From Planctomycetota bacterium (GTDB lineage Bacteria > Planctomycetota > JAJSAM01): a DNA stretch of 16,460 nucleotides. Position 1 is the stretch's first letter. Each line of letters starts with the position of its first letter. The notes below the pieces were generated by a model, which was not told the DNA's origin, did not search any database, and saw only the letters and a list, made by a program, of their open reading frames with translations. The stretch spans positions 1 through 16,460 of the forward strand of contig JAJSAM010000020.1 of the NCBI GenBank assembly GCA_024274785.1, written 5' to 3'. A program made the translations under genes and the position numbers. Of the stretch, positions 1 to 14,732 are shown one piece after another.

Positions 1-2199
1 CAGCATCTCCTTCGTTCCCGAACCGCTCCGTAGCGGGCTGCCCTTCGACAACTCCGATTTCGCGACCAGCGTCTGGAAGGCCCGGAGCGTCTCCGGCCGG
101 TACGCATAGCCTCTCCCCAGGTCCGGGGCGGTGCGCCGGGTCACCGTGCGATTCACCTCCGCGGTATTTCCCGCCCGGTCGGTGGCCGTCACCTTGATCT
201 CGTAGCTCCCGTCCTTCGCAAAGCTCACCGTCCGCTCAAAGCGGCCACCCCGCAACGCGGTGTCCCGGTCGCAGACCCTCACCGTGCAGTCCGGCTCGTT
301 CACTCTTCCGCTGATCCGCAGACTGCTCGTCTTGATCGTCTGAGGCAGCGCGTCCAGGGTGATCACCGGTCTCTTCGTGTCCAGCGTCACCGTCCGCGTC
401 TTCCGGGTGCGGCGGCCCAACCCGTCGGTGGCGATCACCTCGATCTCGTTTCGCCCCTCCCCCAACCGCACCGCGGCCGTGAACCGCCCGCCCACCGCCC
501 GCACCGGGTCACCGTTCACCGTCAGCAGCTTCAGGGTCGCATCCTCCACCGTTCCCTTCACGGTGAGGTCCTGAGCTCTGGTCAGGTGACCTTCTGCCGG
601 CTGCTCCACCCGGAGCGTTGGCGCGGCGGTGTCGCACTCCATCTCCCGCGATGTCTCGGATCGATTCCCGGCCCGGTCGGTGGCCTCGATTCGAATCCGG
701 TTCTTCCCCTCCGCGAGGTCCAACGTGGTGCTGAAGCTGCCGTCCTCTTTCAGCGTCACCGCGTTTCCGGAGACCTCCACCTGCTCGAGGTGCGGGTCCC
801 GCGCCCGGCCCGAGACGGTCACCCTCCGGGTGGCGCAAAGCGCATCCGCGGCCGGCGCCTCGAGCTCGATCGCCGGCTTCGTCGTGTCGAGAATCACCGT
901 GAAGGTCAGCGGCTCGTGGCGGGTGCCCGCCCCGTCCACCGCCCATACCTCAAGCGTGGTCTCCCCCTCCGAGAGGTTGATCGGCACCTCGAAGTTCCCC
1001 TGCGAGGTGGGGCGATACCGCTCGCCATCCACAAAGACCCGGCCCCGCTCGCAGTCGGTCAGCGTCCCGCTGACCTTGAACCTCCGATCCCCGGTGATGG
1101 TCACCGCTTCAGAGGGGCTGCTGACCACCAGCTTGCCCATGAATACCGGTGCGGGAGGCGGCTTCGGATCCTCAGTGGGGGGAGGCGGCCTCTGCTCGGG
1201 AATCGTCGGCGCCGGTTTCGTTGCCTTCACCACCAGCGATTCCCGGCCCGGCCGAGGATCATCACCCTTCCGGCTGGCCAGCAACGCGATCCCACCGCCC
1301 ACCAGAAGCAGCAGCAGCGCCAGGATCAGCCCTACCCGCCGCTTGCCCTCTCTCGGCGGATCCTTCGCGTCGGGCGCTTCCCCGCGAATCAGACCCCCGC
1401 AGGATGCCGGACGGTCCCCGGCATCCTTCGAGAGACCCCGCAGGATCGATCGCCCAAGCCTCGACGGTGCATCCGGCAGGGGGGGAGGCTCGTTGTTTTC
1501 GATCTGGTGGGCGATCTCGCCCCGGTAGAACGGAGGGTGCCCCGCCAGGCACTCGTACATCGTCGCCGCCAGGCCATAGATGTCCTGGGACGGGGAAGGC
1601 AACTCCCCGTTCAACTGCTCCGGAGACATGTACGGCAACGTCCCCGAAGTGCTCTCTCCGGTCAGACGGGTCAGGCTCTCCTTCATCTCCCGGGCGATAC
1701 CGAAGTCGGCGATCAGCGGCGTGCCATCCTCGTGCAGCAGGATATTGCTCGGCTTGATGTCCCGATGGACCACCTTCTTCCCGTGGGCGTAGTCCAACGC
1801 CTCGGCCAGAGGAGTGAAGAGCGCCACCACCTGCTCCTCCGTCAGGGGGCCGTCCCGCGCCAACCTCTCCTCCAGCGTCTCGCCGGGGATGAAGTCCATC
1901 ACCAGAAAGACCCCGTCGCTGCTCTCCTTGAAATCGCGCAGGGTGACGATGTTGGTGTGAGTGAGAGTCATCCCCCGAAGAGCTTCCTGGCGGAGCTGCT
2001 GCACCGCCTTCCTGTTTCGGGCCAGCAACGCCGGAGGCAGCTTGATGGCCACCTCGTGATCCTTGTCCGCGGCCAGGTGCACCGTCCCCATCCCCCCGCT
2101 GCCCAGCTCCCGAATCACCCGGTAACGGCCCGCGAAGATGATCTCCTCAGCAGGTTTCTCGGTGCCTTCAGGGATGGGGTCGTGAGGATCGGCCGGCAA
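1..2199 (-). CDS. Hanks-type Ser/Thr protein kinase, membrane-anchored. It has a cytoplasmic N-terminal kinase domain, a single TM helix, a Pro-rich linker and at least four tandem Ig-like beta-sandwich repeats as ectodomain. The C-terminus lies beyond the window start (partial). The probable start is TTG at 2197-2199.
   Basis: Minus-strand translation gives the Gly-loop LGSGGMGTV, the VAIK lysine, [16 protein letters not shown] and [11 protein letters not shown] hydrophobic stretch follows ([21 protein letters not shown], about nt 1270-1330). Then come repeated ~85-aa modules, each ending T-x-TV-x-LDT-x-KP (for example [15 protein letters not shown] and [16 protein letters not shown]). The reading frame is open from 2199 to nt 1. 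There is no in-frame ATG upstream of the Gly-loop. TTG is preceded by GGGGAGAGAG about 7 nt upstream. The gene is absent from the ORF track because no stop codon falls inside the window. Confidence 0.85.
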
Positions 2200-2461
2200 G
2201 GTGTCTCTCTCCCCTCGATGGATGCCCGCTCCAAGGATATCGGATACGGGTGGTCCGATTCAATGAGGACGCACGGTGGAGGCGTTGTTTTTTGCGCCGT
2301 GGGTGTGCAGGCGCCGCGGTGGTTTCTTGTGCGGGCGCTCGGAGGGCGCCGGTCCCTCGGCGCCCTTGGTGGGGCGCGGACGAGACGGAGCTCGTCCCTC
2401 CTGGGCGCGTGCATCAGTGCTCTCGGTCCTGCGAACCAACTCTTGCGCGAGCCCCAAGGGG

Positions 2462-2495
2462 TTGGCAAACGTCCTGGTATGCCGTATGGTCATAC
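2462..2495 (+). promoter_or_regulatory. Putative sigma70 promoter of the toxin-antitoxin pair. It reads TTGGCA-N17-TATGGT and is overlapped by a direct/inverted GTATG repeat set (GTATG-cc-GTATG-gt-CATAC, 2477-2495). This is a candidate autoregulatory operator.
   Basis: The -35 TTGGCA lies at 2462-2467, followed by a 17-nt spacer and the -10 TATGGT at 2485-2490. GGAGGTG (2497-2503) sits 7 nt before the ATG at 2509. The repeats overlap the -10 and the transcription start region, as is typical for RHH antitoxin operators. Confidence 0.45.
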
Positions 2496-2508
2496 TGGAG
2501 GTGGTCCT

Positions 2509-2751
2509 ATGGGTGCGGCGAAAATCGCAATCAGCCTGGATAAAGCGCTGCTGAAGAAGCTTGACCGGCTGGTCAGGTCAAGTGTCTTTCCGAGCAGAAG
2601 TCGCGCCATTCAAGATGCGCTCACCGAGAAACTGGCGCGTCTGGAGCGAACCCGTCTCGCTCGGGAGTGCGCGAAACTCGATCCGGCAGACGAAAAAGCG
2701 TTGGCTGAAGAAGGCATGGCTGCGGAGATTGCCGAGTGGCCCGAATACTGA
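2509..2751 (+). CDS. Type II antitoxin of the ribbon-helix-helix (CopG family), cognate to the downstream MazF/PemK toxin.
   Basis: The 80-aa product has an N-terminal beta-strand ([17 protein letters not shown]) followed by two helices. There is a strong SD (GGAGGTG). The stop overlaps the start of the toxin gene by 16 nt. The track placed this segment at the tail of a spurious 721-aa ORF. Confidence 0.8.
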
Positions 2752-3074
2752 GGGGAGAAGTGCGATGGGCGGACCTGGCACCCACGCGAGGCCGCGAGCA
2801 GTCGGGGCGACGTCCGGTCCTGGTCATCAGCCAGGACGTATTCAACGCCCGCTCGGGAACAGTGATTGCGCTGGCGATCACGAGTCAGCCCCAGAAAGCA
2901 GGGTTCCCACTGACGCTCGAGCTTGCTTCGACGAAGCTGCCGAAGCGCTCATGGGTGAAGATCGGACAGATCCGAACTCTCTCAGTAGAGCGAATCGGCC
3001 GGAAGCTTGGCACGGTGGCTCCGGAAGAACTGGTTGCCTCGCTCGAGGGGCTGCATGAGATTGTGGGAACCTGA
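2736..3074 (+). CDS. mazF: Type II toxin of the MazF/PemK endoribonuclease family.
   Basis: The 112-aa product reads [32 protein letters not shown]...[10 protein letters not shown], the canonical PemK/MazF fold signature. The start is GTG, with GGAGA 8 nt upstream. It overlaps the antitoxin gene, the usual TA organisation. Confidence 0.9.
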
Positions 3075-3239
3075 CCAGCCGTTGCAGCCGACCAGCTTCT
3101 CCGGCGGCTGATCGGGCACCGCGGTCTACAGCTCGCCCATGTATTGCATGCTGTTGATGGCGACCATGAACCTTCTGGTGCCGAACTTCACCGACGCGGC
3201 GTCCACCAGCGGGACATACCGCTCCGGCTTCACCGTGAC

Positions 3240-4577
3240 TCAGTTCACCACGGTTCTCGCGGTGGGGGAGAGGGATGTTACGAACCACTCGCCGTGGTGG
3301 AAGACGATCGAGGCGTGCCTCGTCTCGATGCCCTCGCCGCTCAAGCGGATCGCCGCGTCTCGGGAACCCACTGCCGCCTTGCGGAACACCTGGATGTAGG
3401 TGTGCTGCGGCGTGTTGTCCAGGCGCTCGAGCCGAAGCGCATCGGCCGCGTGGGGATGCTCCGAGCCGACGCTCAGGCTGTCTTTCGGCCCCTCCGCCAG
3501 CGGATAGCCGAGCTTCAGGACCCGGCCGGGTTCGGACGGATAGAAGATCCTGCCGCCCAGGGTCAGCACCTTCTCGGTCCTGGTCAGGCGCAGCTTGAAG
3601 TTCTCGAAGAGCGGGATCCACTCCTTCACGGGAACCGGCTTGCCGTCGAGCAGCATGCCGTTCGTGCTGCCGGGATCCTGCACGCAGACGACATGGTCGC
3701 GCAGGCGAAAGGAGCCGTGGAATCTGGAGATCTGGCGGCTCAACGTGAGATTCCGATGATCCTGACGCTCGGAGCGGCAGGGAAGACATCGCAATACCAG
3801 CGGAATGGCGATATCCTCCTCGCGCAACTTGTCGAAGGTCGTCGGCTTCACTCCAAAGCGCAGCTCCCGCCTGGCGAACAGGAAGTAGCGCCGTTCCCTC
3901 CCCGCACCGGACGTCCGCTCCAGCAGGACGAGTTGCCGGACGCCCTCGTCCCGCCGCAGGCCGGGCTCCACCCAGCCGTCCGGTCGCGGGATGAGTTCCA
4001 GGGGAGCCCAGTTCCCTCTTTTCCCATTCCCGCGGTCCTTGTCCTGACTCTTGACCAGGTCCGAGATCTTCACGTCGCCGGTGTGGTTGTGGAACTTGAA
4101 CTTCGCACCGCTGACATCGGCGTTGAGTCCCTCGACCAGGTCGGCGATCGAAACATCCCCGACGTGCTCGTCAAACTCGAAGGTAACGCCCCGGAGGTCG
4201 ACTTCCCCACCCGCCTCTCCCGGATGGGCCACCTGAAACACCACCGAGTGATCCAGGACGTGGAGCAAGCGGGGGGACCTCTCTCCGGTGATCTGCAACT
4301 GAACGAGGATGGACGAGACCATCTCCTCCCCGGGCGTGTCGGGAGTGAACTGAAACCGGATGTCCTTCGCCTCGCGGGGAGTGAGCTGGATAGTCGCCGT
4401 CGTCTTCGCGAGCTCGATCCCCGGTACGTCGATGGACATGGTCAGCCGACCGCTGGTGTCGGTCAGATTCCGCACCTTGAAGTGCAACAGGCAGTGGTCG
4501 CCGACCCGGTAGCGCCGGGCCTGGTCGATCTCGACGAGGATGCCACTCTGAGCGAGGATTCTTGGATCTATGGACAC
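3240..4577 (-). CDS. Tandem FHA-domain protein. The N-terminal region contains an internally duplicated 27-aa module. The first FHA domain is complete, with GSTNG. The second FHA domain is terminated by an in-frame TGA.
   Basis: FHA1 reads ISRFHGSFRLRDHVVCVQDPGSTNGMLLDGKPV. FHA2 reads AIRLSGEGIETRHASIVFHHGEWFVTSLSPTARTVVN followed by a stop. I prefer the start GTG at 4577, 13 nt after the upstream stop and with AGGGAAG upstream. The track's longer GTG start at 4643 would overlap the upstream gene by 53 nt and has no SD. If the TGA at 3240-3242 is read through, the frame continues to TAG at 3126-3128. Confidence 0.75.
   Translation of the reverse strand: MSIDPRILAQSGILVEIDQARRYRVGDHCLLHFKVRNLTDTSGRLTMSIDVPGIELAKTTATIQLTPREAKDIRFQFTPDTPGEEMVSSILVQLQITGERSPRLLHVLDHSVVFQVAHPGEAGGEVDLRGVTFEFDEHVGDVSIADLVEGLNADVSGAKFKFHNHTGDVKISDLVKSQDKDRGNGKRGNWAPLELIPRPDGWVEPGLRRDEGVRQLVLLERTSGAGRERRYFLFARRELRFGVKPTTFDKLREEDIAIPLVLRCLPCRSERQDHRNLTLSRQISRFHGSFRLRDHVVCVQDPGSTNGMLLDGKPVPVKEWIPLFENFKLRLTRTEKVLTLGGRIFYPSEPGRVLKLGYPLAEGPKDSLSVGSEHPHAADALRLERLDNTPQHTYIQVFRKAAVGSRDAAIRLSGEGIETRHASIVFHHGEWFVTSLSPTARTVVN
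4053..4214 (-). repeat. Tandem in-frame duplication (2 x 81 nt) inside the FHA-protein gene. It encodes two copies of a 27-aa module (G-x-x-F-x-F-x-x-H-x-G-D-V-x-I-x-D-L-V).
   Basis: The plus-strand units gaccaggtccgagatcttcacgtcgccggtgtgg... (4053-4133) and gaccaggtcggcgatcgaaacatccccgacgtgc... (4134-4214) have a period of exactly 81 nt. The protein copies are GVTFEFDEHVGDVSIADLVEGLNADVS and GAKFKFHNHTGDVKISDLVKSQDKDRG. Confidence 0.6.
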
Positions 4578-4590
4578 GCGTTGTTCTTCC

Positions 4591-6456
4591 CTAAGTACCC
4601 GGAGGGGGACCGCAGAACGGGCAGGCCCTGCCCGTGTAATCACAGCCGCAGGAGTGGCACTTTTTCACCACCTCCGGCTTCTCCTCTTCCTTCTTTTTCG
4701 CGCCGACCACATCCCGGATCGCCTCCGCTTCGCGATCACCCGCCGTCGCCCGGGTCTCGACGGCCTTTGCCATGGCGTCGAAGGAGCGGTCCACCATCTT
4801 GTGGAGCAGCACGTCGTCCTTGTCCGCAGTGTCCCGCCGCACCGAGTCGAGTCGCTCCCGGAACTCCTTCTCCTTCGCCGCGGTCTCCTCGGCGTGTGTC
4901 TTTGAGAAGTACTCCTTCATCACCTCCTGCATACCGGCGTCCCCCTCGGCGCCGAGCGCGATGACGAGCTCCGGCGCCATGTCTTTGCCGGCCTGAAGGA
5001 CCGTGGCCTTCGCGCCGGCGCCGGTCAGTTTCTCCTCCCGCGCCAGCCGGGACTTCAACTCCTTCATGGTGGAGTAGAGGTCCACTCTCAGGCGCTTGTT
5101 CGTCGCCTCGAGCTGGTCCGCCCGCTCCTTCACGTCGAGTTCGCCCATGGCCCGGCGCTTCCACGAATCGTCTTCGAGCTGCCTGGTGTAAGCCCCGAAG
5201 TCGACCTCGGCCGTACGATTCGCAATGTCGGCGACCGCCTTCTTGCGGTCCTCTTCGATCAACTGCTCCAGCTTCATCAGCCGGTTCTCGCCGCTTTTCA
5301 GCACCTCCGCCCGGTCCAGCTCGAAGCGCTGCTCCAACTCGATTTTCCGCACCAGGAAGTCCCGAGCCCGGTGGCGGTCGTCCTGCTCGTAGGAGAGCTG
5401 GTCGGTCAAGGCATCCAGGTCGCTCTCGCCGATCAGCTTCTTCTCGAGCTGTTCCTGCGCGGTGCTCCGCAGGAACTCCTTCATGGAGGACTCGTCCTTG
5501 ACCTCCTCCATCCGGGCGTGCTGCATGCTCTTTCTCAGGTCGGCCCACGCCTCGGCCTTCTTCGCGTGCCACTCGGCATCCTGCTTCGCCAGCGCGTGCT
5601 CTTCCTTCTCCTTCTCGAGGAGCAGCGCCCGCTCCTTCATGATCTCGCGAATGTCGTCGAGATCCGGCACATGCACGTCGAGGGTCTCCACGCGGTGCAT
5701 CACCAGGCCGTAGCCCTCCAGCGTGGTCCGCATGTGGGCCCGGATCGTCCCGTTCAGCTTCTCCTTGAAATCCTCGTTGCCGATCACCTCGCTGGCGATC
5801 CACCCGCCGGCGGCATCCTCCACGGCGTTCCGGACCACGTCCTGGAGGCGGTGGCCGATGGCCTTCGTGGTCAGGGAGACGGCACTCTTCATCAGGTTGG
5901 TGAGCAGACGCTCGGGGTTGTTGATCTCGAGAACCACCCTCGTATCGATATCCATCGGGATGCCGTCACTCGAGCGCACCGAGTGGAAGGTGTAGCGCAG
6001 CGGGAACTCCGAGAGGTCGAAGTAGACGACCTCCTTGCGCCGGGCACCCTCCGCCCCGACCTGGAGATCCCGGAAGGTGCTCTCGATGGCGTGCGAGCCG
6101 GGGTCGAGCGTCTTGAGAAACGCCCCATCCCCGAGAAGCATCGCGCCGTGGCCGAAACGCACGGTGATCTGTCCGCTGACGGCGTGCTCCTTCGTGTCCA
6201 CCCGGTATTTCCGGGAGAGCTCCCCGGCATCGGGATCCCACAGGAAATCGAAGGAGATCTCCCGCTCGATCGGCGGAAGCTCCATCCCGCACCGATGGCA
6301 GATCTTGTCGGTCGGTGTGGCGATGCCGTCACAACCCTCCTTGGTGCACACGCGGTACACGTTGGGCCCCGGGGCGCCGCAGTTCGGGCAGAACCGGCAC
6401 TCCTCCGGCAGCGGCTTCCGGCAGCTCGTGCACTTGTCTTTCTTGTCGAAGATCAT
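4591..6456 (-). CDS. Flotillin-like SPFH (band-7) domain protein. It has two N-terminal and one C-terminal Cys4 zinc-ribbon motifs and a long E/K/R-rich coiled coil.
   Basis: The 621-aa product has these parts. N-term: CTSCRKPLPEECRFCPNCG and CTKEGCDG...CHRCG. SPFH core: ITVRFGHGAMLLGDGAFLKTLDPGSHAIES...IPMDIDTRVVLEINNPERLL. Coiled coil: about 330 aa of heptad-like charged sequence. C-term: CHSCGCDYTGRACPFCG. The gaps to the flanking genes are 11 and 13 nt. Confidence 0.8.
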   Translation of the reverse strand: MIFDKKDKCTSCRKPLPEECRFCPNCGAPGPNVYRVCTKEGCDGIATPTDKICHRCGMELPPIEREISFDFLWDPDAGELSRKYRVDTKEHAVSGQITVRFGHGAMLLGDGAFLKTLDPGSHAIESTFRDLQVGAEGARRKEVVYFDLSEFPLRYTFHSVRSSDGIPMDIDTRVVLEINNPERLLTNLMKSAVSLTTKAIGHRLQDVVRNAVEDAAGGWIASEVIGNEDFKEKLNGTIRAHMRTTLEGYGLVMHRVETLDVHVPDLDDIREIMKERALLLEKEKEEHALAKQDAEWHAKKAEAWADLRKSMQHARMEEVKDESSMKEFLRSTAQEQLEKKLIGESDLDALTDQLSYEQDDRHRARDFLVRKIELEQRFELDRAEVLKSGENRLMKLEQLIEEDRKKAVADIANRTAEVDFGAYTRQLEDDSWKRRAMGELDVKERADQLEATNKRLRVDLYSTMKELKSRLAREEKLTGAGAKATVLQAGKDMAPELVIALGAEGDAGMQEVMKEYFSKTHAEETAAKEKEFRERLDSVRRDTADKDDVLLHKMVDRSFDAMAKAVETRATAGDREAEAIRDVVGAKKKEEEKPEVVKKCHSCGCDYTGRACPFCGPPPGT

Positions 6457-6467
6457 CGCTTTTCCTT

Positions 6468-8060
6468 CTACGCCGTCGTGCCGAAGTAACTCTTGCGTTC
6501 ATCGAGCTTGCCGTCGATCTCGAGGGCCATCGCCCGCATCAGCTTCAGGTGCTTTTCGGGGTTGCCGCCGGCGACGACCGAGTCACAGGCCGCCTTCGCC
6601 TCGCGCGTCAGCTCCTTGATCTGTCCGCTCACCGCGGTCTGGAACGACACCAGCCTGTCCAGGTTCTCCTTCGGAAGCTTGCCCTTCAGGAAGTCCTGGG
6701 CCTCTCCGTCCGCGGCGAACTTCACCTGGTTCTGCAACTCCTCGATCCGCTCACTCGCCGAGAGGATACTCCTGGCCGAATCGGCGTTCCCGGCTTCACG
6801 CGCCTGGTGGTGCGCCTCGGCCAGGGCCTTCTTCGAACTCTTCAGCTCGCGAAGGAGCAGGGCCCGGAGATCCTTGTCTTGCTGCAACACCTCGCGAACA
6901 TGGTCGGCCTCGTTGGCTTCCGTCCCGGCCGCGGTGATGCCTCGCTCGCGACGCCGGACCGGCTCCCGCTTCTTCATCGCCCGGCGGATCACCAGGCCGA
7001 GGAACAGGACCGCGATGAGCCCGAAGCCGATGTAGAGGACGATCGGGTTGTCCCTGAGGAAGGACCATGCCTTCGCCTCCCTGCTGTCCCCGGGCGCGCC
7101 CGGAATGAGGTTTCTGATCCGCTGGCACTCCGCCTTCAACCATTGGTCGCCCTGGTGCCCGCTCTCGAGCTCCTCGACCAGAGCGATCACGCGGTCGCGA
7201 TCGACCTTCCCGGCGAGCACCGCTTCCCAGGCCGGCGTCGTCAGCATCCGCCGGACGTCGTTCAGGAAGTCGCTGAGGGCCGGGCGGACGCTCGGATCGG
7301 CCTCACTGTACAGGTCGTTGATCAGGCGATAGGCCTCGTCCGCATTCCCGAGGTCGATCTGTCCCTGGATCTTCGCCAGGGCGGTGGCCTGGGATCGGAG
7401 GGTCTCCGCCCGGTTCTTCAGCAGGCCGAGCTCGGTGCCGAGCTCCGGATTCGACGCCACCGCGTCGGCGATCCGGGCCAGGCATTCGTCGATCTTCCCG
7501 GCGGCGAGCAGGCGGTTCAGGTTCTCGAGGACGGCGAGGTCCACGATGTCGGAGAGGTCGCTCCCCCAGACCTTCTCGGCGGTCTTCGCCACCCAGAGGG
7601 AGAGGTCCACGGTCGGCTTGAACTTGCCTCCGCCGAGGTCTTCCACGCCATACCGGACGAACAGCAGCCCCTGCGCCGCCTTGAATTTCCAGCCCAGCTC
7701 GTCGTAGGTCGCCGGGTTGTAGCGGATCTCCTCGGGATTCATGAACGCCTGGTCCACGAACTCCTTCACTCCCTCGTACGGCCAGACCTCGGTCAGACCA
7801 TCCACCCGGGCGATGGCGTTGCTCAGGGGTTTCTTGAGATCTTCCGCCAGCGGACCGTCGGGGCCCACGAACAGCGCAAGGTGCTCGATGCCGGCCTTCC
7901 CCAGCTCACCCGAGGAGACCAGGTCCTGCTCGATCTGCCGGACCGCCCAGTCCCTGAGCTTCTCCAGCGCGATGCGCTCTTCGGCGACGCCCGCCATCAG
8001 GGGGGCCGCCGTGGCGATCAGCACGGCCAGCGCGATCGTGATGATCCTTGCGGTTTTCAT
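6468..8060 (-). CDS. Bitopic membrane protein of unknown function. It has a signal peptide, a periplasmic domain of about 290 aa, one TM helix and a cytoplasmic coiled-coil tail of about 190 aa.
   Basis: The start ATG at 8060 is preceded by AGGAGAG. The signal peptide is MKTARIITIALAVLIATAAPLMAG and the TM helix is IVLYIGFGLIAVLFLGLVI. The C-terminal region is charged and helical. The track's longer MCKERT start lacks an SD. Confidence 0.7.
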   Translation of the reverse strand: MKTARIITIALAVLIATAAPLMAGVAEERIALEKLRDWAVRQIEQDLVSSGELGKAGIEHLALFVGPDGPLAEDLKKPLSNAIARVDGLTEVWPYEGVKEFVDQAFMNPEEIRYNPATYDELGWKFKAAQGLLFVRYGVEDLGGGKFKPTVDLSLWVAKTAEKVWGSDLSDIVDLAVLENLNRLLAAGKIDECLARIADAVASNPELGTELGLLKNRAETLRSQATALAKIQGQIDLGNADEAYRLINDLYSEADPSVRPALSDFLNDVRRMLTTPAWEAVLAGKVDRDRVIALVEELESGHQGDQWLKAECQRIRNLIPGAPGDSREAKAWSFLRDNPIVLYIGFGLIAVLFLGLVIRRAMKKREPVRRRERGITAAGTEANEADHVREVLQQDKDLRALLLRELKSSKKALAEAHHQAREAGNADSARSILSASERIEELQNQVKFAADGEAQDFLKGKLPKENLDRLVSFQTAVSGQIKELTREAKAACDSVVAGGNPEKHLKLMRAMALEIDGKLDERKSYFGTTA

Positions 8061-8082
8061 GGTTCTCTCCTTGCACATCCCA

Positions 8083-8997
8083 CTAGCGGTTGGTGTTCAC
8101 TTCGACTTCGGTCCGGTTGTCCGTACCGCTCTGCTCGAGTCTCTTTTCGAGGAGCGAGGCGAGGTCGCCCTCGTAGTCCCGGGCGAGCCACAGCGTGAAG
8201 GTCGCGGACGAATCTGCCGGGTCCTTGATCAGGTCGGCCAGCACCACGCCCTCCTCGTCGCCGATGGCGCCCTCGATCGCATCGCACCACGCGTCGAGGT
8301 CGACCTCCCCGGATTCGGTGGAAAGGGAGACGACCTTCACGCGGGTCTCAACCGCGTACTCGCTCACCTTTTCGTGGACGAGGTCGGCGGCGGTGGTGCA
8401 CATCCGGTCGAGCACCTGCCGCGTGGCGCGGGCCTCGGTGAGGTCGGCTCCGCTCTCAGCCGAGAGGGGAGCGCGGTAGAGTGGCCGCCCATCCGACCTG
8501 CGATCCACCGCCACGTCCCCGTCCCCGTGTACCTGGACGCGCCCGGCGCCGAGTTCCATGACCTTCCACGCCTTCAGGTTCAGGCGGATGAGGACCTGCG
8601 CGGCGGCGTGGCCCGTCGTCCCGGGTGCGGCGAGGCGAAGGCCCCGGTCGAGGAGATGCTGCTCGAAGAGTACCCGGATCGCCCCGGTCTCGTCGCTGCC
8701 GTCCTTCTTCGCCTGGATCTCGAGTTGAAGCGCGTATTCCTCAAGCGCCGGGTTCTTCGTCGTCTCCGGGACGTGGAGGTTCACCACCGGGGCGCTCTTT
8801 TTCACCTCGAGCTTCATTCTGGCCTGACGCAGGGTCGGCTGTGGCTCGGCCCCGGGCCCGGCTTCGGCTTCGTGCTCGAGTCGGGGCGGAGGGGCCTTCT
8901 CGACGGGATCCGGAACCGCGGTGCATCCCGAGGCCAGCACCGCCACTCCGAGGATCATCGCCCCGAGCAGCGAATTGCGAATGCGGTCAGCCATCAT
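8083..8997 (-). CDS. Lipoprotein of unknown function (signal peptide with lipobox L-A-S-G-C).
   Basis: The product begins MMADRIRNSLLGAMILGVAVLASGCTAV. There is a very strong SD (GAGGAGGAAGAG) directly upstream. It is the first gene of the four-gene minus-strand operon. Gene gaps are 22, 11 and 13 nt. Confidence 0.8.
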   Translation of the reverse strand: MMADRIRNSLLGAMILGVAVLASGCTAVPDPVEKAPPPRLEHEAEAGPGAEPQPTLRQARMKLEVKKSAPVVNLHVPETTKNPALEEYALQLEIQAKKDGSDETGAIRVLFEQHLLDRGLRLAAPGTTGHAAAQVLIRLNLKAWKVMELGAGRVQVHGDGDVAVDRRSDGRPLYRAPLSAESGADLTEARATRQVLDRMCTTAADLVHEKVSEYAVETRVKVVSLSTESGEVDLDAWCDAIEGAIGDEEGVVLADLIKDPADSSATFTLWLARDYEGDLASLLEKRLEQSGTDNRTEVEVNTNR

Positions 8998-9151: not shown

Positions 9152-10213
9152 TTAGCCCGCCTCGCCCTGGCGGTCAACGCCGTCTGTGCCGAGATCGGGG
9201 CGTCGCGGGAGGACCATGGTCAGCCTCGCGCCGCCATGGGGGAGATTTGTCGCCTCGATGCGGCCGAAATGCTCCTTCGCGGCTTCCATGATCAGGGAGA
9301 TGCCTTCCCCGCTGCCGGAAGTGGAGATGCCGCGCTCGCCGAAGTGCTTCAGAACCTCCTCGGTGAACCCGTCGCCGTCATCCGTGACGGTGATCAGGGT
9401 GTCGGTGGAGGGCGGTCGGGCCTCCTCGACGCGCACCGTGACCCGCGTGGCCTGTCCGCCGTGGCGCACCACGTTGCGCAGGAGTTCCGCCACCGCGTCG
9501 GCGATGCGGGGTTCATCGAGGAACAGGCGCGCGCCGCCGTCGGTCTCGTCGTCGTACTCGAGGGTGATCCCCGCTTCGGTCAGCATCGGCTCGAGGGCCC
9601 GGACAGCCTGCTCCACCGGCCGGCTGAGAGGCGCCTTGCGGCTGTCGAGCCAGGTGCGCAGCGAGGAGAGGGACTCGGTCAGGAGGTCCACCTTCTCGGT
9701 GACCGCGTTCCCGGTGAGCTTCTTCGTGTCCAGCTTGTAGATCTCGCACAGCTTCAGCACGCCCTTCGTGGCGCCGAGAGCGGCCTTGCAGGAGAGCGGC
9801 AGAAGGTCTTTCAGGCTGACGCCCATCACGAGTGGCCGGGAGAAGAACGAGACGACCTGGTCGGCGACGCTGGGGATGAGGGCGACCTGTTTTCCGAGGC
9901 TCTTCAGCAGGCCGGCGTCCTCCGGGCAATCGTTCATGGCCTGGCCGAAACTCTTCAGGTTCATCAGGCATGATTCGACCACGGAGTGCCGCAGTGCGGA
10001 GTCCAGCCGGGCGAGCACGTGGAGGGCGCGCACGTCGAGATCCTCGGGCCGTTTCGGGGGCGTTTCCGGCGGGGGGAGAACCTGCGTGATCGCCTCGACT
10101 CTCCGGACGAATCGCGCGGATCGTTCCCGATCCTCGGGCGTCAGCATGCGATCGAGGCTGGCGAGGATGCGTTTCTCCTCCACCTTCACCGCCGCGCGGG
10201 CGGCCGCCTCCAT
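9152..10213 (-). CDS. Soluble (non-membrane) sensor histidine kinase with a C-terminal HATPase_c domain. The start is uncertain.
   Basis: N-box ELLRNVVRHG, G1 VTDDGDGF and G2 GSGEGISLI are present near the C-terminus. No TM segment is seen and the N-terminal part is coiled-coil-like. The ATG at 10213 has GGAGGAG 5 nt upstream. Alternative starts are ATG 10246 and the track's TTG 10366. The gene is divergent from the sigma54 activator gene. Confidence 0.65.
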   Translation of the reverse strand: MEAAARAAVKVEEKRILASLDRMLTPEDRERSARFVRRVEAITQVLPPPETPPKRPEDLDVRALHVLARLDSALRHSVVESCLMNLKSFGQAMNDCPEDAGLLKSLGKQVALIPSVADQVVSFFSRPLVMGVSLKDLLPLSCKAALGATKGVLKLCEIYKLDTKKLTGNAVTEKVDLLTESLSSLRTWLDSRKAPLSRPVEQAVRALEPMLTEAGITLEYDDETDGGARLFLDEPRIADAVAELLRNVVRHGGQATRVTVRVEEARPPSTDTLITVTDDGDGFTEEVLKHFGERGISTSGSGEGISLIMEAAKEHFGRIEATNLPHGGARLTMVLPRRPDLGTDGVDRQGEAG

Positions 10214-10427
10214 GTTCTCCTCCTGCCGGCGGTAGCTCTCCTCCATCTTCTCGATGCGTTTCCGGTAGGCGCTGCCAGGGTCGTCGTTGCTCAATGGACT
10301 CTCTCCCGGTGGGTGTTCCGCGGGGTCTGACACAATCAACGTGCCAAAGCGGGAGGGAGTGTGCAAGGGCGTGGCGGCGAACTCCTTCCTCGACTACGAT
10401 GAGCGGTGGCGGGCGCGGAGGGCAAAC

Positions 10428-11921
10428 ATGCATCGCATTCTGATCGTGGATGACAAGGCGGACGAGTTCGAGCCGGGGCTTCGGGCCATCTTTCCCCGGG
10501 ATCATCTCGTCCTCGTCCACTCCGGAAAAGAGGCGCTCGCGGTGCTTTCCGAGGACGAGGTGTTCGACGTCGTGCTGCTCGACATCCGGATGCCCGCCGA
10601 AATGGGCTCCTGCGACGAGGAGGAGGGGCTCGCGGTGCTGGTCCGGCTCTGTGACGAGTGGCCGGAGCTGCCGGTGATCCTCCTCTCCGTGCTCTCCGAC
10701 GTGGAGACGGTGGTCCGGGGCATGAAGCACGGCGCGTTCTACTACGTCCAGAAGCCGCCGGACCGGGGGAAGCTCCGCCACCTCGTCGCGAAGGCCGCGG
10801 AGCGCAGCCGCAGCGCCGCGGAGCGGCAGACCTTGAAGGAGATCATCGACCTGCGCGACGTCGCGGCCACCGGCTCCATCACCTCCGGGACGAGAACCGG
10901 GCTGGGCAGCCTGGTGGGCCGGAGCGCCCCGATGCAGGCTCTCTTCGGTCTCATCGAGCGGGTGGCGCGCGCGAACGCCACGGTCCTCATCCTCGGGGAG
11001 ACGGGCACCGGCAAGGAGCTGGTGGCGAAGGAGATCCACCGGCTGAGCCCGAGGTCGGGCAAGGCCCTCAGGGTGGTCGGTTGCCCGAACATCGCGAGGG
11101 AGCTGCTCGAGTCCACGCTCTTCGGGCATCGGCGGGGGGCCTTCACCGGCGCGGAAGTGGATCGCGAGGGCGAATTCGTGCTGGCCGATGGCGGAACGCT
11201 GTTTCTCGACGAGGTCGGCGAGCTGGAATCGACTCTCCAGGCCAAGCTTCTGCGCGCCCTCGAGACCGGTGAGGTTCACCCGCTCGGCTCCCGCGACCCG
11301 GTGAAGGTGGATGCCCGGATTGTCTCCGCCACGCATCGCGATCTCCGTGAGCTGGTGGGGGAGGGCACCTTCCGGGAGGATCTCCAGTACCGCCTGAATG
11401 TCCTCCGCGTGGAGCTGCCGCCGCTGCGGGATCGCCTGGACGATCTCCCGTTCCTGGCCCCGGCGCTCCTCGGGAAGATCGCCCCGGATCGCCCCGGCCT
11501 GCATCTCTCCGCCGAGGCTCTCGGCCGGCTCGAGACCCACTCCTGGCCGGGCAATGTGCGGGAACTGAGAAACGTCCTCGAGCGCGCCGCGGCTCTCACC
11601 GATGGCGACGAGATCACGCCGGACGCGATCCAGATCGACCGGGACGCCGAGCCGGGGACGACGAATCCCGCCGAGGCCGCTTTCGCCCGGGCGCTGGCCG
11701 GCCGGCCGTTTGAGGGTGGGATCAGGAGGTTTCGTGACCAGCACGGCGAGGTGGCCTTGAAGGACCTCCTGATCCGGGCGCTGCGCACCACGACGAATGT
11801 CCGCCGGGCGGGGGAGCTGCTGGGTTTCATCGGCGCGGAGGACCCGAAGCGGGACTACGACAACCTCCGCCAGTGGATGCGGAAGCTCGAGGTGTCGAAG
11901 CGAAGCGCGCTGGGGGGGTGA
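10428..11921 (+). CDS. Sigma54-dependent response regulator of the NtrC family (REC + AAA+ sigma54-interaction domain + C-terminal HTH).
   Basis: The REC domain has acidic residues and VVLLDIRMP. The Walker A motif is GETGTGKE. The GAFTGA motif is intact in [10 protein letters not shown]. The Walker B motif is [10 protein letters not shown]. The C-terminal HTH reads [25 protein letters not shown]. The start ATG at 10428 has GGAGGG upstream. The track's longer TTG extension is unlikely. Confidence 0.9.
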
Positions 11922-11946: not shown

Positions 11947-13674
11947 TCAGAGGTCCGGCACCGGGTGAGCTCGCTCCCACGCGAGGTGCCGGCGCAACTG
12001 GAGGAGCTGCCCCAGGGGGAACACCAGGGGCCAGATGGGTATCAGGAGCAGCCTGCTGATGAGTCCGGGGCCTCTCCATTCCTCCGCGATCCGGGCGCGC
12101 TCCTCCGTGAGCCACTCGGGATCCTGCCGGGTGAAGGCGATCACCTCGGCCTCTTCACGGCGATGCCGGCGCAGGACGACTTCGAAGAGGACCCAGCAGG
12201 TGATCAGCAGCCCGAACTGCAGAAACAGGGATGGAAAGTAGAGGATGATCCCGAGATCCGCGTCGTCCAGCTCGTCGAAGAATCCGTTGAAGTCTTCCAG
12301 CAGAAGGATCAGCAGTCCGAAGGCCGACGCCGCCGCGAGGACGATCATCGCCCGGCGCAGGAGCCGCAGTTTCGCCGGGGGGGGAACTCTCCCTGCAAGG
12401 CCCGGTTTCGGCTCTCCCGATCCGGCGGTTGAGAGAACCCGGGAGAGTTCGATCTGGCGGCGTCGGATGTGGTCGATGAGGGCATAGATCATCAGCAGCG
12501 CGCAGATCGGCGCCAGGCTCGGATAGAAGGGGAGCAGGAGGGCCTGCAGCGAGCCGAGGAGGATGCAGAGCGTGGTCAGCGAATCGATGGACCATCCCGT
12601 GGCGGGCTCGGTCCGGGCCGGTGGGTTCGCGGGCGGTTCGGGGGAGGTCGGGGCCGGGGCGGGGGCCGGGGCGCTGCATTCCGATCGGTCGGAGGGCTCG
12701 TCCGGCGGCGGGATTCGTTCGGGCGCCGGCAGGGGTGGCGGCGCGGGTGATGGGAGGGGCGGGAGAGGTGGTGGCGGCCGGGAGGGCGGCGCGGCGGGCG
12801 GCCCTTGCGGCCTGGTGGGTGGCTTCGGCGGCACCGGGGGCGATTCGAGGATCGCCTTGCAGCTCGCCGGTCGATCAGCGGGATCCTTCGAGAGCGCTTC
12901 CATGATTCGCGTGACCAGCAAGGAGCCGGAGGTATTGGGCGCCCTGGGCTCCTTCTGCGCGATCTGCACCGCGATCTCGCCCCGATGGAACGGGGGGCTT
13001 CCGGCGAGGCATTCGTACATGGTCGCGGCGAGGGAGTAGATGTCCTGGGCCGCGGTGGGCGGTTCGCCGAAGAGCTGTTCCGGGGACATGTAGGGCAGGG
13101 TCCCGGAGGAGCTCTGACCGGTGATCCGGGTCAGGCTGTCCTTCAGCTCCCGGGCGATGCCGAAGTCGGTGAGGAAGGGGCGGCCATCCTCCCGGACGAG
13201 GATGTTGCTCGGCTTGATGTCGCGGTGGATCACCTTTTCGCTGTGTGCGTAGTCGAGGGCCAGGGCGAGCGGCGTGAAGAACTCCACCACCTCTTCCTCG
13301 GTGAGTGTCTCCCGCTCGCCGAGGACGTCCTGGAGGGTCTCCCCCGGAACAAAGTCCATGACCAGGAAGACGTCGCCCTCGCTCTGCTCGATGGTGCGCA
13401 GGGTCACGATGTTGGGATGGGAGAGCCGCCGCGCCAGCAGGGCCTCCTGCTGCATACGCCGCACCACCTTGACGTCCTGTGCGAGGAGGATCGCCGGCAC
13501 CTTGATCGCCACCAGGAGGTCGTCGAGCTGGGTGTCCGCGGCGAGCAGCACTTTCCCCATGGCCCCCTGCCCGAGTTCGCGCAGGACCCGGTAGCGCCCC
13601 AGCAGAACCAGTGGTCCTGCCCCTTCGCAGGTATCCTCGTCGCCACTCAGCGGATCGATGAACTCGCCACTCAT
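11947..13674 (-). CDS. Hanks-type Ser/Thr protein kinase with a Pro/Ala-rich linker and a C-terminal polytopic (about 4 TM) membrane domain. It is a paralogue of the kinase at 1-2199.
   Basis: Motifs seen are [28 protein letters not shown] and [10 protein letters not shown]. The Pro-rich segment reads PPVPPKPPTRPQGPPAAPP...APAPAPTSPEPP. Four hydrophobic helices follow. The start ATG (MSGEFIDP) at 13674 has GAGG 7 nt upstream. Confidence 0.85.
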   Translation of the reverse strand: MSGEFIDPLSGDEDTCEGAGPLVLLGRYRVLRELGQGAMGKVLLAADTQLDDLLVAIKVPAILLAQDVKVVRRMQQEALLARRLSHPNIVTLRTIEQSEGDVFLVMDFVPGETLQDVLGERETLTEEEVVEFFTPLALALDYAHSEKVIHRDIKPSNILVREDGRPFLTDFGIARELKDSLTRITGQSSSGTLPYMSPEQLFGEPPTAAQDIYSLAATMYECLAGSPPFHRGEIAVQIAQKEPRAPNTSGSLLVTRIMEALSKDPADRPASCKAILESPPVPPKPPTRPQGPPAAPPSRPPPPLPPLPSPAPPPLPAPERIPPPDEPSDRSECSAPAPAPAPTSPEPPANPPARTEPATGWSIDSLTTLCILLGSLQALLLPFYPSLAPICALLMIYALIDHIRRRQIELSRVLSTAGSGEPKPGLAGRVPPPAKLRLLRRAMIVLAAASAFGLLILLLEDFNGFFDELDDADLGIILYFPSLFLQFGLLITCWVLFEVVLRRHRREEAEVIAFTRQDPEWLTEERARIAEEWRGPGLISRLLLIPIWPLVFPLGQLLQLRRHLAWERAHPVPDL

Positions 13675-13778
13675 GGTCAACCTCGGCCCGGTGAACACCC
13701 GGGACCGCCAGAGGATAGATCCCCTCCGCCCCCGGAGACAAGGGGTCAGGTCTGACTTTTGTCCGTATCCCGACATTT

Positions 13779-14732
13779 TCAGCCGCCGGAAGCCCACTCC
13801 AGGTTGCCGCCGGAGAGGACGATGCCGACTCTCCGAGTGCCCTCGAGAGCCTGGAACTCACCGGTCAGTACCGCGGCCAGGGTTGTTGCCGCGCTCGGCT
13901 CGATCACGATTTTCATGCGGGTCATCACGAGGTGCAGGGCGGTTCGGATCTCGTCGTCGGTGACTCGCACCACGCGCTCGAGATGATCCCGGAGGATCGG
14001 CCAGGTCAGGTCGCCGAGGCTCGTCAGGAGGCCGTCGGCAATGGTGTCCGGTGCGGTCTGGGGGATCAGGCGGCCGGCGGCCAGGGAACGCCAGGCGTCG
14101 TCCGCGCCGTGGGGCTCGGCGGCGATCAGGTGGAGATCCGGGTTCATCCCACGGGCGGCCACGCAGATGCCCGACATCAGCCCGCCACCACCCACCGGCG
14201 CCACGATGGCGTCGAGATCCGGCACATCCTCGAGCAGTTCCAGCGCCACGGTGCCCTGGCCGGCGATGACGTCCTGGTGGTTGAACGGGTGCAGCAGCGT
14301 CGCCCCCGTCGCCGCGACGACTTCCGCGGAGCGCTCCTCCCGCGCGGCCAGGGTCGGTTCGCAGTCGTAGACGGTCGCTCCATAGCCGATTGTTGCCGCC
14401 CGTTTCACCGCCGGGGCCGACGTCGGCATCACGACGTGAGCGGGAATCCCCCGCGCCCGGGCGGCGAGCGCGAGCGCCTGGGCGAAGTTGCCGGAGGAGT
14501 GGGTGGCGACGCCCCGCCCCGCCTCCGCGGCGGCGAGCGCGAACACCGCACTCGCCGCGCCGCGCATCTTGAACGCGCCGCCCCGCTGGAAGTTCTCGCA
14601 CTTGAAGAAGAGCTCGCGCCCGGCCAGTTCGTCGATCAGGCGGGAGGTCAGCACCGGGGTGCGGTGGATGTGGGGCCGGATGCGCTCGGCGGCCATACGC
14701 ACCGCCCTCAGGTCCGTGGCATCGTTGTTCAT
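13779..14732 (-). CDS. PLP-dependent threonine/serine dehydratase family enzyme (fold-type II; catabolic-type, no ACT domain).
   Basis: The 317-aa product has FKCENFQRGGAFKMRGA (the PLP-lysine motif), HSSGNFAQA and the glycine-rich GGGGL loop. It lies 100 nt upstream of, and co-oriented with, kinase 2. Confidence 0.85.
   Translation of the reverse strand: MNNDATDLRAVRMAAERIRPHIHRTPVLTSRLIDELAGRELFFKCENFQRGGAFKMRGAASAVFALAAAEAGRGVATHSSGNFAQALALAARARGIPAHVVMPTSAPAVKRAATIGYGATVYDCEPTLAAREERSAEVVAATGATLLHPFNHQDVIAGQGTVALELLEDVPDLDAIVAPVGGGGLMSGICVAARGMNPDLHLIAAEPHGADDAWRSLAAGRLIPQTAPDTIADGLLTSLGDLTWPILRDHLERVVRVTDDEIRTALHLVMTRMKIVIEPSAATTLAAVLTGEFQALEGTRRVGIVLSGGNLEWASGG

Follow-up and report, generated by a model that had tools for sequence, protein, structure and literature searches.

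An in-frame TGA at a conserved glycine of the second FHA domain of a tandem-FHA gene from a probable member of the Planctomycetota

How should a stop codon be understood that falls exactly on a conserved glycine of a protein domain, when the remainder of that domain is encoded, in frame, directly beyond it? This question is raised by a tandem-FHA gene on the minus strand of a 16,460-base contig of probable Planctomycetota lineage (the whole of this stretch is referred to here as the window), in which the second FHA domain, FHA2, is interrupted by a TGA at 3240-3242. We compare the gene with its orthologues and wider family, examine the constraint acting on the codons downstream of the stop and weigh a real mutation against an error in the sequence and against several modes of recoding. 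The reading that we prefer, with a probability of roughly 0.55, is that the TGA is a very young, lineage-specific nonsense substitution and a real allele in the sampled population.

The interrupted gene and its relatives

The open reading frame listed on the minus strand spans 3240..4643 and the database protein identical to its product, P0001 (445 amino acids, MSIDPRIL...), whose sole contig is the one described here, begins within it at the GTG at 4577. Translation of the minus strand over 3126-4643 reads ...SPTARTVVN, the TGA stop, VTVKPERYVPLVDAASVKFGTRRFMVAINSMQYMGEL and a second stop. The intact protein would have a length of 483 amino acids, of which the TGA removes only the C-terminal 8%. 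The features of the gene are as follows.

3240..4577, minus strand: truncated tandem-FHA open reading frame of 445 amino acids, from the GTG start at 4577 to the TGA stop (list of open reading frames)
3240..3242, minus strand: in-frame TGA at the conserved glycine of FHA2, residue 446 (translation)
3129..3239, minus strand: in-frame tail of 37 codons, which supplies the four final beta-strands of FHA2 and, at the C-terminus, a short helix
3126..3128, minus strand: TAG, where the gene ended ancestrally, with the same end column (...GEL or WEL, then stop) in the window sequence and both orthologues
3156..3440, minus strand: full FHA2 domain, residues 380-474, of which the part before the stop is residues 380-445 at 3243-3440 (Pfam, AlphaFold2, Foldseek)
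3543..3935, minus strand: FHA1 domain, residues ~215-345, intact and with a canonical GSTNG loop (Pfam, over the stretch 280-330, and AlphaFold2)
4194..4541, minus strand: N-terminal Ig/PapD-like beta-sandwich, residues ~13-128 (AlphaFold2, Foldseek)

The positions of the TGA and the TAG, and the peptide strings around them, are correct in the initial annotation of this stretch. It had further proposed that the TGA sits on the conserved glycine of the V-N-G turn of FHA2 and that the missing strands of the domain are encoded in frame 3' of it, and on both counts the profile, orthologue and structural evidence agrees.

The annotated product ends about two-thirds of the way through the FHA profile. 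Reading the stop as glycine lifts the score against the Pfam FHA profile from 49.1 to 63.0 bits, with a best stretch of residues 404-466 covering positions 4-67 of the 67 in the profile, and FHA2 with its tail alone (92 residues) reaches 39.2 bits (PF00498, E = 9.8e-10), where the gathering score is 20.7. It is only with the tail included that FHA2 matches PF00498 over its full length. The alignment of the solved FHA domain 1uht likewise passes through the stop position and on into the tail (E = 7.8e-4), and the similarity downstream of the stop, whose significance had been named as a point on which the proposal might fail, is significant by both measures.

A word-indexed protein search of 5.8 billion protein clusters found three proteins, namely the window product and two orthologues, P0002 (484 amino acids, 87% identity) and P0003 (483 amino acids, 83% identity), which are carried on the contigs L001 and L002. 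The check that had been recommended, of glycine versus stop in orthologues, gives glycine in both, and both continue past the position of the window TGA to a shared C-terminus, their tails ending at the same column as the window TAG. The orthologous codon is GGC in both L001 and L002. The suggestion that a single change from GGA produced the TGA is therefore right insofar as TGA is one base from that glycine codon, but the GGA intermediate is assumed: from the GGC of the orthologues, TGA requires two base changes, or a synonymous change from GGC to GGA beforehand. Such a prior change, though unobserved, would be plausible at the synonymous divergence of these sequences (pS ~0.42); GGA accounts for 12% of the glycine codons in the window.

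To collect the wider family, 1.84 billion representatives were searched exhaustively with HMMER (E ≤ 1e-3). This returned 239 matches, most of them to proteins with varied N-termini in which a C-terminal module of FHA1, linker and FHA2 is covered, and an alignment of 35 sequences, the window protein and 34 relatives, was used for the comparisons given here. Glycine occupies the stop column in 29 of the 34 relatives, the residues present being G, D, S, N or R and never C, and all 34 run at least 37 residues past it, through the L..G motif (of the 35 sequences in the alignment, 30 have L457 and 33 have G466). There is no stop at the residue-446 column in P0002, P0003 or the 34 wider relatives, and the window protein is the sole truncated member of the alignment.

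FHA2 had also been described as degenerate, with SPTART in place of GSTNGT. The columns of the S/T-N-G loop (437-441) do vary throughout the alignment and, because they vary across the family, SPTART is to be seen as a family trait and not as a sign of decay. Elsewhere in the domain G404 is invariant and H421 is present in 30 of the 35 sequences, with R406 in only 10; the FHA2 of this family retains the glycine of the G-R motif and the histidine of S-x-x-H, without a conserved S/T-N-G loop, and, judged from these motifs, may not bind phosphothreonine canonically.

An AlphaFold2 model of the orthologue P0003, made with the 35-sequence alignment, has a predicted local distance difference test (pLDDT) score of 84, exceeding 90 across FHA2; a model made with three sequences only (pLDDT 33) was set aside. 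In the P0003 model a disordered linker separates the N-terminal sandwich from FHA1, FHA1 has an inserted helix, and residue 446 follows the seventh strand of FHA2. Beyond it lie strands at 447-448, 453-456, 462-465 and 468-474 and a helix at 477-481. Foldseek matches the model to the solved FHA domains of KIF13B, GarA, EmbR and CEP170, and the N-terminal domain, for which there is no Pfam family match, to ASH/PapD-like and MG domains. FHA1 carries conserved L-P-C-R and I-S-R-x-H-G motifs in addition to its inserted helix (residues 270-280). By the orthologue model, a complete FHA2 beta-sandwich of ~11 strands is found in the read-through sequence and not in the 445-residue product, in which FHA2 would be unable to complete its sandwich and fold, with the N-terminal domain and FHA1 left untouched.

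The age and nature of the stop

Over the 37 codons of the tail the pairwise ratio of nonsynonymous to synonymous substitution rates (dN/dS) is 0.105 against L001 and 0.144 against L002, and in the upstream part of the gene the corresponding values are 0.122 and 0.175. When window-specific changes are scored at codons that are identical between the two orthologues, the tail shows five synonymous and no nonsynonymous changes; a tail that had been neutral over the whole branch would be expected to show about 10.6 nonsynonymous ones (P ≈ 2e-5; branch synonymous rate 0.27 per site), and any time that the tail has spent without constraint comes to less than about 28% of the window branch (95% bound). 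Amino-acid replacements occur at the same rate in the tail (1 of 23 comparable sites, R477S) as upstream (17 of 368). No indel interrupts the tail, the ancestral stop still closes it, and its G+C content at third codon positions (GC3), 0.92, is like that of the neighbouring genes. The test for relaxed selection 3' of the TGA, as older pseudogenes would show, came out negative, which implies that the lesion is recent or is not real; from its codons, the tail appears to have remained in translation, or at any rate under constraint, up to the very recent past, if not to the present day.

Sequencing error, a recent truncating mutation and translational readthrough had been put forward at the outset as the possible explanations. 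The first two remain, but readthrough finds no support, as the stop is unconserved, no structure accompanies it and the code is the standard one. Under a recent truncating mutation, which we prefer, an ancestral GGN codon at residue 446 (GGC in both orthologues) would have become TGA in this genome alone. Translation would end at the TGA by normal RF2-type termination, giving a product that consists of the N-terminal domain and FHA1 and lacks the last four strands of FHA2, and the allele would represent a partial loss of function or an incipient pseudogene. Ordinary leakiness of the UGA codon (10^-3 to 10^-2, PMC10057733) would yield at most traces of the full-length protein. The locus has moreover been remodelled in the window lineage, since the kinase gene that overlaps the end of the FHA gene in the orthologous contigs is missing and a mazEF cassette is found in its place. 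We speculate that this remodelling relaxed selection on FHA2, and that loss of the kinase gene and its replacement by mazEF may have cut the cost of losing the domain. In a weaker variant, also speculative, kinase loss and FHA2 truncation would be functionally linked, pointing to FHA2 as a kinase docking module.

Several considerations weigh against a real nonsense allele. A tail without any decay is exactly what a sequencing error would give, and the evidence gathered here fits a real mutation and a consensus base error alike. The two base changes that separate the TGA from GGC tell equally against mutation and error, and the link to kinase loss is an association within one genome only. Scans of genome contigs and metagenome contigs with protein patterns found no conspecific or related sequence in which polymorphism at this codon could be assessed, a scan with the exact DNA across the stop found no other copy, and an exact look-up of P0001 in assemblies returned no record.

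The principal rival is thus a base-call or assembly error, in which the true codon is GGA, the gene is intact at 483 amino acids and the consensus T is an artefact, whether of a low-coverage contig in a metagenome-assembled genome (MAG), of oxidative G>T damage in the library or of a minor-strain base carried into the consensus. We consider such an error possible, although less likely than a real allele. Nothing distinguishes the tail from coding sequence under constraint (0 nonsynonymous window-specific changes, dN/dS 0.10-0.14, GC3 0.92, no indels, ancestral stop), the lesion is one base from a glycine codon, and all of the other genes shared with the orthologous contigs are intact and of matching length. 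That the contig is the sole copy of its sequence among 15 billion proteins is consistent with a MAG. On the other hand, the rest of the syntenic stretch, ~9 kb, has neither frameshift nor stop and the contig is not visibly error-prone; the loss of the adjacent kinase is a real change at this locus; and, by our own rough estimate from typical error rates of short-read consensus sequences, the probability that an error has created a stop in any one gene of 1.4 kb lies below the frequency at which young nonsense alleles usually occur in bacterial genomes. An apparent frameshift in a neighbouring histidine-kinase-like gene (9513-11744 / 9152-10366) was entertained as a sign of poor assembly and rejected, the HATPase frame being continuous. 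The real allele is therefore favoured over the error because the contig is otherwise clean, because the locus is remodelled next door and because of our estimate of young nonsense alleles against consensus errors; the basis of this preference is a set of weak priors.

Functional readthrough, in which a real TGA is decoded by a near-cognate tRNA, a suppressor tRNA or selenocysteine so that truncated and full-length isoforms are both made, is improbable. UGA is the leakiest bacterial stop, with a basal readthrough of 10^-3 to 10^-2 that rises to about 10% under stress (PMC10057733). Coding constraint 3' of the TGA appears intact, as readthrough would have it, but a young lesion or an error would account for the kept tail equally well. 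Neither orthologue has the stop, nor does any of the 34 wider relatives. The tight turn at this position needs glycine, and near-cognate decoding of UGA most likely inserts Trp, Cys or Arg. In the 106 nt that surround and follow the stop there is no stable RNA fold or hairpin resembling a selenocysteine insertion sequence (SECIS) element (z = -1.15 against shuffled sequence), and Rfam gives no match near the stop, the only candidate being a chance similarity to toga_FSE (18.4 bits, with the cut-off at 40; E = 0.78) that lies ~140 nt 3' of the TGA and so beyond the TAG. A scan for terminators between the TGA and mazF found none. Programmed readthrough is left unsupported by the unconserved stop, the lack of downstream structure and the standard code, and selenocysteine recoding by the lack of a SECIS stem-loop and of any Cys or Sec at the homologous column in the relatives.

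More doubtful again is a split gene, in which the tail would be translated alone, for instance from a GTG 7 nt after the TGA, to give a peptide of ~35 amino acids that completes FHA2 non-covalently. The GTG is in frame, as the third codon after the stop (GTC ACG GTG), and the tail is undecayed; it is, however, preceded by no convincing ribosome-binding site, the arrangement is found in none of the 34 relatives, and we know of no assembly route by which an FHA domain receives four edge and core strands in trans. A regulated two-isoform adaptor, in which the TGA is tolerated through readthrough or a GTG restart and an FHA1-only form coexists with a little full-length or split FHA2, seems to us as improbable as functional readthrough. 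Finally, the reassignment of TGA to glycine (genetic code 25), which the position of the TGA on a glycine might suggest and which the initial annotation had judged unlikely, is refuted: TGA ends four neighbouring genes (PALP, kinase616, mazE and mazF), of which the PALP and mazF products cover their own Pfam profiles to the end, no window gene has any other in-frame TGA, and the contig has a G+C content of 66% and a PALP gene closest to Planctomycetota MAGs, code 25 being known from the low-GC Gracilibacteria and SR1.

The gene neighbourhood

The tandem-FHA gene belongs to a conserved minus-strand cluster, whose order we take from L002: proteins of 304 and 536 amino acids in the window, a zinc-ribbon SPFH/Band-7 protein, the tandem-FHA protein and then Ser/Thr kinases. 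The following features of the window surround it.

1..2199, minus strand: Ser/Thr kinase with Ig-like repeats, running off the contig end (Pfam Pkinase; open frame of 733 codons)
2509-2751 and 2736-3074, plus strand: mazE and mazF of a mazEF cassette (Pfam RHH_1; PemK_toxin, E = 3.9e-28; NCBIfam MazF)
4591..6456, minus strand: zinc-ribbon SPFH/Band-7 protein of 621 amino acids, the upstream partner (Pfam Band_7, E = 4.4e-15)
8083-8997 and 6468-8078, minus strand: the two cluster proteins of 304 and 536 amino acids (L002 counterparts of 299 and 530)

The SPFH–FHA gene order recurs in L001, in L002 and beside a distant relative, P0007 (27% identity), where the FHA protein in addition bears a double zinc ribbon at its N-terminus. 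The 304- and 536-residue proteins have no match in Pfam, NCBIfam or PADLOC, a PADLOC scan of the cluster proteins gave no match to a defence system, and the tandem-FHA protein scores far below the cut-off of every named NCBIfam equivalog. In the literature, a search for a module of FHA, SPFH and kinase proteins turned up only archaeal ESCRT contexts of tangential relevance.

In L001 and L002 a kinase gene (302 or 325 amino acids; the adjacent kinase of L002 has 302) starts overlapping the FHA stop. The window is without that gene, and its nucleotide synteny with L002 ends at 3130, directly after the TAG. The mazEF cassette is convergent with the FHA gene and lies between it and the orthologue of the second kinase. 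Its mazE gene, coding for an RHH antitoxin, starts at the ATG at 2509 behind a GGAGG ribosome-binding site, and the GC3 of the cassette is 0.61-0.69, against 0.81-0.92 for the neighbours. The region has no match among plasmids. The cassette looks like an acquired insertion coupled to deletion of the kinase gene.

The kinase at the left end is the orthologue of L002 kinase 2 (68% identity, tblastn). The window holds two such paralogous Hanks-type Ser/Thr kinases, at 11947-13797 and 1-2199, both on the minus strand, which are 62% and 68% identical to L002 kinase 2, respectively. In place of the FGE-sulfatase domain found in its L002 orthologue, the left-end kinase has Ig-like and Glucodextranase-B-like repeats. 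At 4292-4621 of L001 there is a 109-residue 'FGE-sulfatase' gene whose first 24 residues are the same as those of the L002 kinase-FGE fusion and are followed directly by the FGE domain; at the junction, VLAG|KLPN, the kinase domain has either been deleted from within the gene or been lost because the Logan assembly collapsed there. The longest open reading frames of the window, 586-2751 (plus strand, 721 amino acids) and 9513-11744 (minus strand, 743 amino acids), were rejected as artefacts, opened off-frame by the high G+C content and rich in Arg/Gly/Pro when translated; the genes really present there are the minus-strand kinase 2199→1 and an HATPase_c protein at 9152-10366.

Meaning and comparison with known systems

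The phenomenon is an ordinary one, with no sign of a special decoding mechanism, and the lesion adds nothing new about decoding. Its value is for annotation: the deposited 445-residue protein is a truncated form of a 483-residue protein, and its entry, which may reflect a pseudogene or an error of sequencing, deserves to be flagged accordingly and is unsuited to represent the family. That family is rare and poorly described and, with its Ig-like domain and tandem FHA domains, its SPFH and kinase partners and its non-canonical FHA2, may merit study separately from the lesion.

The interrupted gene resembles a young bacterial pseudogene or nonsense allele in having one in-frame stop where the orthologues are intact, no other lesion and undecayed codons downstream; it is unlike the typical nonsense allele in that only the C-terminal 8% is lost, so that partial function may remain through the N-terminal domain and FHA1. 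With the programmed recoding of UGA, as selenocysteine or in phage and viral readthrough, it shares a UGA in frame with conserved coding sequence beyond it; a SECIS element or stimulatory structure is lacking, however, the relatives do not conserve the UGA, and the orthologous residue is glycine rather than Cys or Sec. As for the protein itself, GarA/OdhI, EmbR and FhaA/FhaB of bacterial Ser/Thr-kinase signalling are its nearest points of reference, sharing the FHA beta-sandwich with a protein whose gene adjoins those of Hanks-type kinases; the window protein differs from them in its tandem FHA domains behind an Ig-like domain, in an FHA2 without the canonical loop and in its pairing with an SPFH protein.

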